Of a DNA stretch of 64,000 bases, positions 53,341 to 53,624 are shown in pieces. This stretch comes from a virus. Lineage: Duplodnaviria; Heunggongvirae; Uroviricota; Caudoviricetes. Within the stretch, counting starts at the first letter, position 1, and each line of letters starts with the position of its first letter. The notes under the pieces are model-generated. The model searched no databases and was not told the origin of the DNA. It worked only from the letters and a program-made list of their open reading frames with translations. Both the position numbers and the translations under genes were made by a program. Location: IMG/VR virus record IMGVR_UViG_2880372215_000004; one strand, written 5' to 3'.

Positions 53341-53563
53341 TTTTATGATAAAAAATTAGTGCAAGAAGACAAAGAATCGCCTTGCGCTAATGCTCTGAAA
53401 CAGGTCACTAATATCATCTAAATAGTTGACTCATAGTGACAGCATGTGTTGTGTCTTGCAGTATTATATAGCCTATTATTTAGATTGAAGCCATCATAAT
53501 CTATTGATGTTAATGGTTTTTTATTGTTTGTTGTTCGGCTTTTTATACTAATTTGAGCGAAAC
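53341..53563. other. Lambda-type attR-like junction (P arm - core - B')
   Basis: The P arm is homologous to 49664-49870, including the sib-like hairpin at 53356-53390. The core GCTTTTTATACTAA (53538-53551) is followed by TTTGAGCGAAAC, which resembles the bio-side arm of E. coli attB-lambda (ACTTGAGCGAAAC) from memory. Confidence 0.65.
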
Positions 53564-53624
53564 AAAAAGATAAAAAGTTGTTTTTCGGTAAGCGTACAGC
53601 GAGGGCCGTATTGACGGGGATGTG

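Follow-up and report, generated by a model that had tools for sequence, protein, structure and literature searches.

A lambda-type P-O-B' junction carrying attB-lambda host DNA lies inside the effector arm of Sp9/PPompW-type prophages and is probably a captured prophage end

The viral DNA record IMGVR_UViG_2880372215_000004 (Caudoviricetes), analysed here as one stretch of 64,000 nucleotides (the window), raises a question of prophage boundaries. A segment of 247 bp, 53341-53587, resembles a phage-host attachment junction of lambda specificity, and the prophage that carries it starts with an integrase of another type. The initial annotation took the segment for the right junction of a lambda-int prophage whose two ends might belong to different integration systems. 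Is it an end of the resident prophage and, if it is not, how did a piece of lambda-type attR come to lie there? The parts of the segment are as follows.

53341-53537, plus strand: relic of a lambda-type P arm, 159/192 identical to lambda
53356-53390, minus strand: decayed sib/tI-like hairpin, TTAGTGCAAG...CTTGCGCTAA, 34/37 identical to lambda sib/tI
53396-53415: position matching the lambda Int arm site P1, 17/20 identical
53428-53447: position matching the lambda Int arm site P2, 17/20 identical
53538-53551, plus strand: att core GCTTTTTATACTAA, 14 nt, with a run of five T (T5)
53552-53587, plus strand: B' arm and ybhB/bio-side host flank, TTTGAGCGAAAC followed by 24 more nt

The junction is bordered on the left by a truncated IS256-family fragment and on the right by ISEc8. 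It was compared by alignment to lambda attP, to the real attR that strain E1620 has at attB-lambda and to a copy free of the IS in an O145:H28 PPompW prophage. Its P arm, in which P1, P2 and the accessory-factor region are homologous to lambda, matches the Sakai Sp3 attR (O157) at 158/194 positions and the other P-arm copy in the window (49662-49860) at 146/190; many lambda-like phages have an attP or attR with ~80% identity to it. The sib/tI-like hairpin has a U run on its 3' side when read on the minus strand and carries an A.C mismatch in the stem of the transcribed strand; its folding energy is -14.7 kcal/mol, whereas the lambda hairpin reaches -24.3 and the internal copy (49677-49711) -28.7. 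A simple terminator scan at the junction did not call this hairpin, and an Rfam search of 49-54 kb gave no match at E <= 0.1. The second P arm with its own sib-like hairpin, noted initially at 53356-53390, is borne out, coordinates included.

The core departs from the 15-bp core GCTTTTTTATACTAA, with its 7-bp overlap, that lambda and attB have in common: the junction is one T shorter. Lambda has six T, as do all the attB and attR sites read from E. coli, Shigella and E. ruysiae. The T5 core puts the left core-type Int site 1 nt out of register with the overlap, and because of this displacement the site is likely inert and would no longer recombine. As judged from its sequence, the junction has no evident present function and would take no part in integrating or excising the current prophage.

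Beyond the core, the B' arm is continuous with ybhB-side DNA. The flank at 53552-53587 is identical at 32/36 positions to the ybhB/bio side of E. coli attB-lambda, with one 8-nt deletion, and differs from it by loss of GGGAAGGT and by CGTGT; it does not resemble the lambda P' arm. Its alignment score of 22.5 compares with 4.8 +/- 1.9 for 2000 shuffles (maximum 15), so that the objection of an insignificant likeness to the gal-bio attB region fails and the proposed resemblance of the core and bio-proximal arm to attB-lambda stands. In the IS-free copies (O145:H28, O26, O103 and metagenomes), the host flank runs for 67 nt, 60/67 identical, and scores 47.5 against 5.3 +/- 2.1 for shuffles (~20 sd). 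These 67 nt correspond to 75 nt in E. coli coordinates and enter the left half of a hairpin situated between attB and the stop codon of ybhB, presumably the terminator of that gene. The attB recognised by Int is ~21 bp, a length that the host flank far exceeds. The stretch is thereby confirmed, far beyond chance, as a true lambda-type P-O-B' junction with an attB-lambda host flank.

A true junction need not be a present boundary. The window is DNA of E. coli O157:H7, and the O157 strain Sakai allows the position to be read. An identical copy in Sakai, at 1807058-1807304 between the IS256-family transposase pseudogene ECs_1817 and ISEc8, sits 8.4 kb inside Sp9 (1757644-1815725). Rightward of it come espO1-2, nleG, espM1 and nleG9', and then the ompW' repeat, which is the real attR; TR01 and O145 PPompW have the same layout as Sakai Sp9. 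Circular Sp9 and Sp10 have been detected and their junctions sequenced, showing attL x attR recombination (Asadulghani et al. 2009, PMC2669165). Sp9 excises via its own ompW ends, and the element that carries the lambda-type junction thus excises despite it. The junction is therefore an internal fossil rather than the right end of any present prophage: of the initial reading, the P-O-B' structure survives and the position at a prophage end does not. A tandem pair of prophages occupies ompW in TR01, their integrases nearly alike, and the first of them has lambda-type head genes, unlike Sakai Sp9, together with the same effector arm, junction included. Different head genes with the same arm imply that the arm moves between phage backbones.

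The prophage of the window has the following composition, as given by BLAST against the Sakai prophages.

1-1236, minus strand: intact IntR, 411 aa (Sp10/Rac-type integrase), at the true left end; the window starts at the intR stop codon
1 to ~23 kb: left part of Sp10, identical to Sakai
~23-40 kb: mosaic head/tail region
~40000-56029: Sp9 arm; Sakai Sp9 aligns to 42284-56029 with one indel and no mismatches
53588-56029, minus strand: ISEc8 (IS66 family), with mismatched 8-bp target duplications
53588-64000: right end of Sakai Sp12 and left end of Sp11, without the IS1203 copy
56030-57281, plus strand: remainder of the Sp12 right end, with a partial ISEic2 (56030-56884) and a dinI-like gene

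The window prophage is thus a chimera of an Sp10 left part, an Sp9 arm and an Sp12 end, and the same arrangement is present in the completed genomes of NCCP 15739, AR-0428 and 2009C-3554. Two simpler descriptions, a whole Sp9 as in TR01 and an Sp12-based hybrid as in strain 8368, were discarded on the same BLAST comparison, which gives the order Sp10, mosaic, Sp9, Sp12 plus Sp11. The Sp9 and Sp12 ranges overlap because ISEc8 is common to both parents. The element, which was correctly placed as an IS66 interruption 24 bp on (it starts at 53588, 24 nt past TTTGAGCGAAAC), is flanked by GTTTTTCG on the left (53580-53587) and by CTGATGTC on the right (56030-56037). Its parental copies have matching duplications, GTTTTTCG on both sides in TR01 Sp9 and CTGATGTC on both sides in Sakai Sp12; such hybrid duplications prove that the ISEc8 of the window arose by homologous recombination between two IS copies. 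The Sp12 remainder extends to 57281, the Sakai-annotated Sp12/Sp11 boundary after which Sp11 follows, and is identical to Sakai 2204089-2206653 except for the absence of IS1203. That element (IS629-like; Sakai 2204371-2205680) is missing from the window at ~56999/57000. From lysis to terminase, ~23000-29000, the window is unlike Sakai Sp9, Sp10 and Sp12, with 20-100 mismatches per kb and gaps, a divergence that implies another prophage source or an older mosaic.

The left end is as mismatched with the junction as first described: IntR is intact, and in Sakai and NCCP 15739 the DNA to the left of window position 1 is a ttcA (Rac-type) attL rather than a lambda-type B-O-P' site. No attR of IntR type or of ompW type lies within the window. 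In NCCP 15739 (NZ_CM167680.1), the IntR attL is at ~2602688 and the cognate Sp10 attR, with its right arm, is at ~2891522, 289 kb away and inverted; because of this inversion, IntR/XisR would invert the interval and not excise the prophage. In the arrangement seen in the window, the prophage is probably unable to excise precisely. The initial annotation had predicted as much, but for another cause: the likely failure follows from homologous recombination in head/tail genes and at ISEc8, which built the chimera, with the cognate attR displaced and inverted. In O157, rearrangements with prophages at their boundaries have been amply documented (Fitzgerald et al. 2021, PMC8743559).

To the left of the junction, the effector arm holds several further elements.

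49662-49945, plus strand: complete HK022-family attP, P-O-P', with a strong sib hairpin at 49677-49711
49947-50941, minus strand: HK022-type integrase pseudogene (RefSeq annotation) with frameshifts and an internal stop, N-terminus absent
50935-51078, plus strand: 3' fragment of a tail-fibre-assembly gene, part of the captured right-end module
51113-52024, plus strand: nleH1-2, part of the same module
52090-52659, plus strand: nleF, part of the same module
52672-53340, minus strand: IS256-family fragment (in part the partial IS1414 of the Sakai annotation), which cuts the P arm short at its distal end

The internal attP and int are 83.5% identical to HK022 attP plus int and 68.5% to lambda, and the core of this attP, CTCCTTCTGACATGGAAGTTG (49856-49876), differs from those of both phages. 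By sequence comparison it is a separate relic, of another specificity, and not the partner of the lambda-type junction. The dead internal integrase had been taken for the only lambda-type int; it belongs instead to the HK022 family, and the part of that claim which holds is that the window has no working partner for the junction. Some Stx1a phage records start their attL duplication near 49856-49876; together with a core unlike that of HK022 or lambda, these records suggest a third integration specificity in the HK022-type integrase family.

A second att-like scrap lies next to the ybhB flank, outside the window, at 8285-8405 of the O145 PPompW stretch. It consists of ~64 nt of a phage arm and the 3' 57 nt of tRNA-Ser serT, after which espO follows; the scrap shares 84% identity with the terminus of a prophage integrated at serT in strain 06-00048 and 80% with the empty yccA-serT locus. 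By identity, the same scrap is present in Sakai Sp9 directly to the right of ISEc8. ARAGORN called no tRNA gene on it, implying that the tRNA-like scrap is a fragment.

The copies of the junction agree closely. Its left boundary and the end of its flank are identical in 9 viral contigs and 6 metagenome contigs (15 copies), with the boundary between the IS256-family fragment and the P arm constant in 15/15, and the same boundaries recur in E. coli genomes including O26:H11, O103, O145:H28, O157 and the EPEC strain FORC_042. In every IS-free copy the host homology stops abruptly at ...attgcgc; scans of the viral and metagenome contigs revealed no alternative neighbour of the flank on either side, all 15 copies being alike. 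One metagenome copy has the A of lambda instead of G beside the core and still has T5. The flank is uninterrupted in O145 PPompW and, in Sakai and TR01, resumes past the IS. A terminal flank base shared by all copies shows a single origin: the junction arose once and then spread with the effector arm.

What the junction was before it spread is indicated by Sp3, the prophage that occupies the Sakai attB-lambda, between ybhC and ybhB, and whose integrase is a pseudogene. The right end of Sp3 and window positions 50935-53587 are colinear: the 3' end of the tail-fibre-assembly gene is 93% identical, nleH1-1 of Sp3 and nleH1-2 of the window 85%, the IS256-family scrap 81.5%, and the P arm, core and B' together 80.7%. 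By this colinearity, the block from tail fibre to host flank resembles the end of an Sp3-like prophage that once lay at attB-lambda. The junction is thus probably a dead attR of lambda specificity, left by an Sp3-like prophage at attB-lambda, captured with host DNA and now resident in the effector arm. A search of 5426 E. coli genomes for a donor, with a chimeric query of nleF through P arm plus real ybhB of which a place had to cover at least 80%, found no prophage at attB-lambda in which nleF, this P arm and ybhB adjoin; among real attR sites, the nearest is ~81% identical to the junction. Among the species representatives, a pattern scan for native attB found K-12-type flanks only and none with the 8-nt deletion, the pattern requiring a near-exact flank, so that divergent species (E. 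albertii, E. fergusonii) would escape it.

Such an origin may be reconstructed as follows. A phage of lambda specificity would have integrated at attB-lambda, between ybhC and ybhB, giving an Sp3-like prophage in which attR came after the tail-fibre genes and a cargo of nleH-type effectors. The right end of this prophage and ~75 nt of adjoining host DNA would then have entered a phage genome, likeliest by imprecise excision of the lambda-bio type, and the captured piece would have joined the exchangeable effector arm of Sp9/PPompW-type prophages (O157, O145, O26, O103, EPEC). Decay since then is seen in the loss of one core T and 8 flank nucleotides, the weaker sib hairpin, the truncation on the left by the IS256-family fragment and, in O157, the splitting on the right by ISEc8. 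In the window, homologous recombination, both from prophage to prophage and from one ISEc8 copy to another, has in addition placed the arm on an IntR (ttcA) prophage.

Aberrant (lambda-bio) excision characteristically leaves a hybrid att site with host DNA on one side only, broken off at an illegitimate joint. At the junction, only the ybhB side is found beside the hybrid site, in agreement with the one-sided pickup that aberrant excision predicts, and the joint is abrupt and fixed in all copies. A search of the window, of the Sakai prophages Sp9, Sp10 and Sp12 and of the rightmost ~14.7 kb of O145 PPompW found no scrap of the ybhC side, B arm or B-O-P'. In a textbook lambda-bio phage, however, host DNA adjoins phage DNA of the early region, whereas here the flank abuts the serT-type scrap and not the int-proximal or early region of a donor; the joint would thus require an extra event or another route.

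Integration of one prophage into another is an unlikely rival account, in which a lambda-type phage with nleH and nleF entered a chromosome-derived copy of attB-lambda (B-O-B' with flanks) within the effector locus of a resident prophage, and later deletions spared nothing of the newcomer but its right end and attR. Host-derived attB copies (yecE, ykgJ/ecpE, ompW-like) that other phages use are indeed found in PPompW effector loci (Nakamura et al. 2021, PMC8112680), the joint at ~50935-50941 between the integrase and tail-fibre fragments shows that large internal deletions have occurred here, and the att-like scrap beyond the flank is consistent with a cluster of att sites. Against this, the ybhC side and B arm are missing from all the prophage regions just listed, the viral, metagenome and species-representative scans contain no unoccupied B-O-B' with the flank variant, and ybhB, ybhC and bioA are absent from the main text of PMC8112680. 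Far less probable still is the proposal that the junction is a functional right boundary of the resident prophage. An IntR/ttcA-type left end facing a lambda-type junction, without a matching attL, is what suggested it, yet in the ancestral arrangement phage-arm and effector DNA runs 8.4 kb further, to a matched ompW attR, and Sp9 excises precisely with the junction on board (PMC2669165); in the window the junction is followed by ISEc8, the Sp12 end and Sp11 and not by bio-side chromosome, while the real ybhB locus lies elsewhere in the genome, occupied by Sp3. Least credible of all is a fortuitous likeness, or insertion into a secondary att site that is merely B'-like. AT-rich sequence alone could raise similarity, but an IS-free flank that matches with one gap, stands ~20 sd above shuffles and includes half of the ybhB-adjacent hairpin contradicts accident. 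Secondary att sites have only the core in common, and the homology of the flank reaches well past it.

Capture of an Sp3-like right end, as the preferred reading, makes the junction a scar of the former attB-lambda address of the nleH1-2/nleF block and a sequence-level record of type III effector cargo moving between lambdoid phages of differing integration specificity. With it, a fourth host locus has left its footprint among the host-derived att sequences of the effector locus, and a fifth when the serT scrap is included. Whether the Sp9/PPompW effector arm as a whole is a stack of dead att sites, namely the HK022-family attP with its int stump, the lambda attR with 67-75 nt of ybhB-side DNA and the serT scrap, atop the three published attB copies, is evenly balanced. 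If it is, effector loci would expand as whole prophage ends are captured one after another, either by aberrant excision or by nested integration and later deletion, and each layer would record a former chromosomal address of its cargo, e.g., attB-lambda for nleH1-2/nleF. Relic att sites within prophages can also mislead the prediction of boundaries and of excision. The structure itself is ordinary in kind, a fossil att site with a transduced scrap of host DNA, and its value as a record of effector-locus assembly is modest.

A published description of this lambda-type junction was not found in the literature, and its nearest relatives are of four sorts. Similarly to the attR sites at attB-lambda in Sp3, in E1620 and in the lambda DE3-derived DN1 with transduced bio DNA, it has a P arm with sib, P1 and P2, a lambda-type core, and B' with ybhB-side DNA, and as in Sp3 an effector-carrying, tail-fibre-proximal arm lies upstream. 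Unlike these real sites, it is not located at ybhC/ybhB, is one T short in the core, carries the 8-nt flank deletion and stops after 67 nt of flank; it is ~18-20% diverged from all those found and has no partner attL or lambda-type int. With the lambda bio and lambda gal transducing phages it shares one-sided host DNA, an intact hybrid att site and an illegitimate joint. By contrast with them, it keeps only ~75 nt of host DNA and no host gene, its joint meets an att-like scrap, and its carrier later gained other integration modules (ompW and, in the window, ttcA).

The attB-in-PP sites (attB-in-PP_1 to _3), host-derived attB copies that are held in PPompW effector loci and used for integration (Nakamura et al. 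2021, PMC8112680), come from the same PPompW/Sp9 family and the same effector locus, and are likewise short pieces of chromosomal att DNA, ~80-87% identical to their source. They are complete attB sites in use, whereas the junction is a hybrid P-O-B', without a complete B-O-B', and apparently inert. It could itself be a remnant of a former occupation of this kind; as to its occupation by another prophage, all copies seen have the same neighbours. Finally, the rearrangements described in O157:H7 (PMC8743559) account for the arm on an IntR prophage and for the distant, inverted attR, i.e., for the context in which the junction is found and not for the junction.
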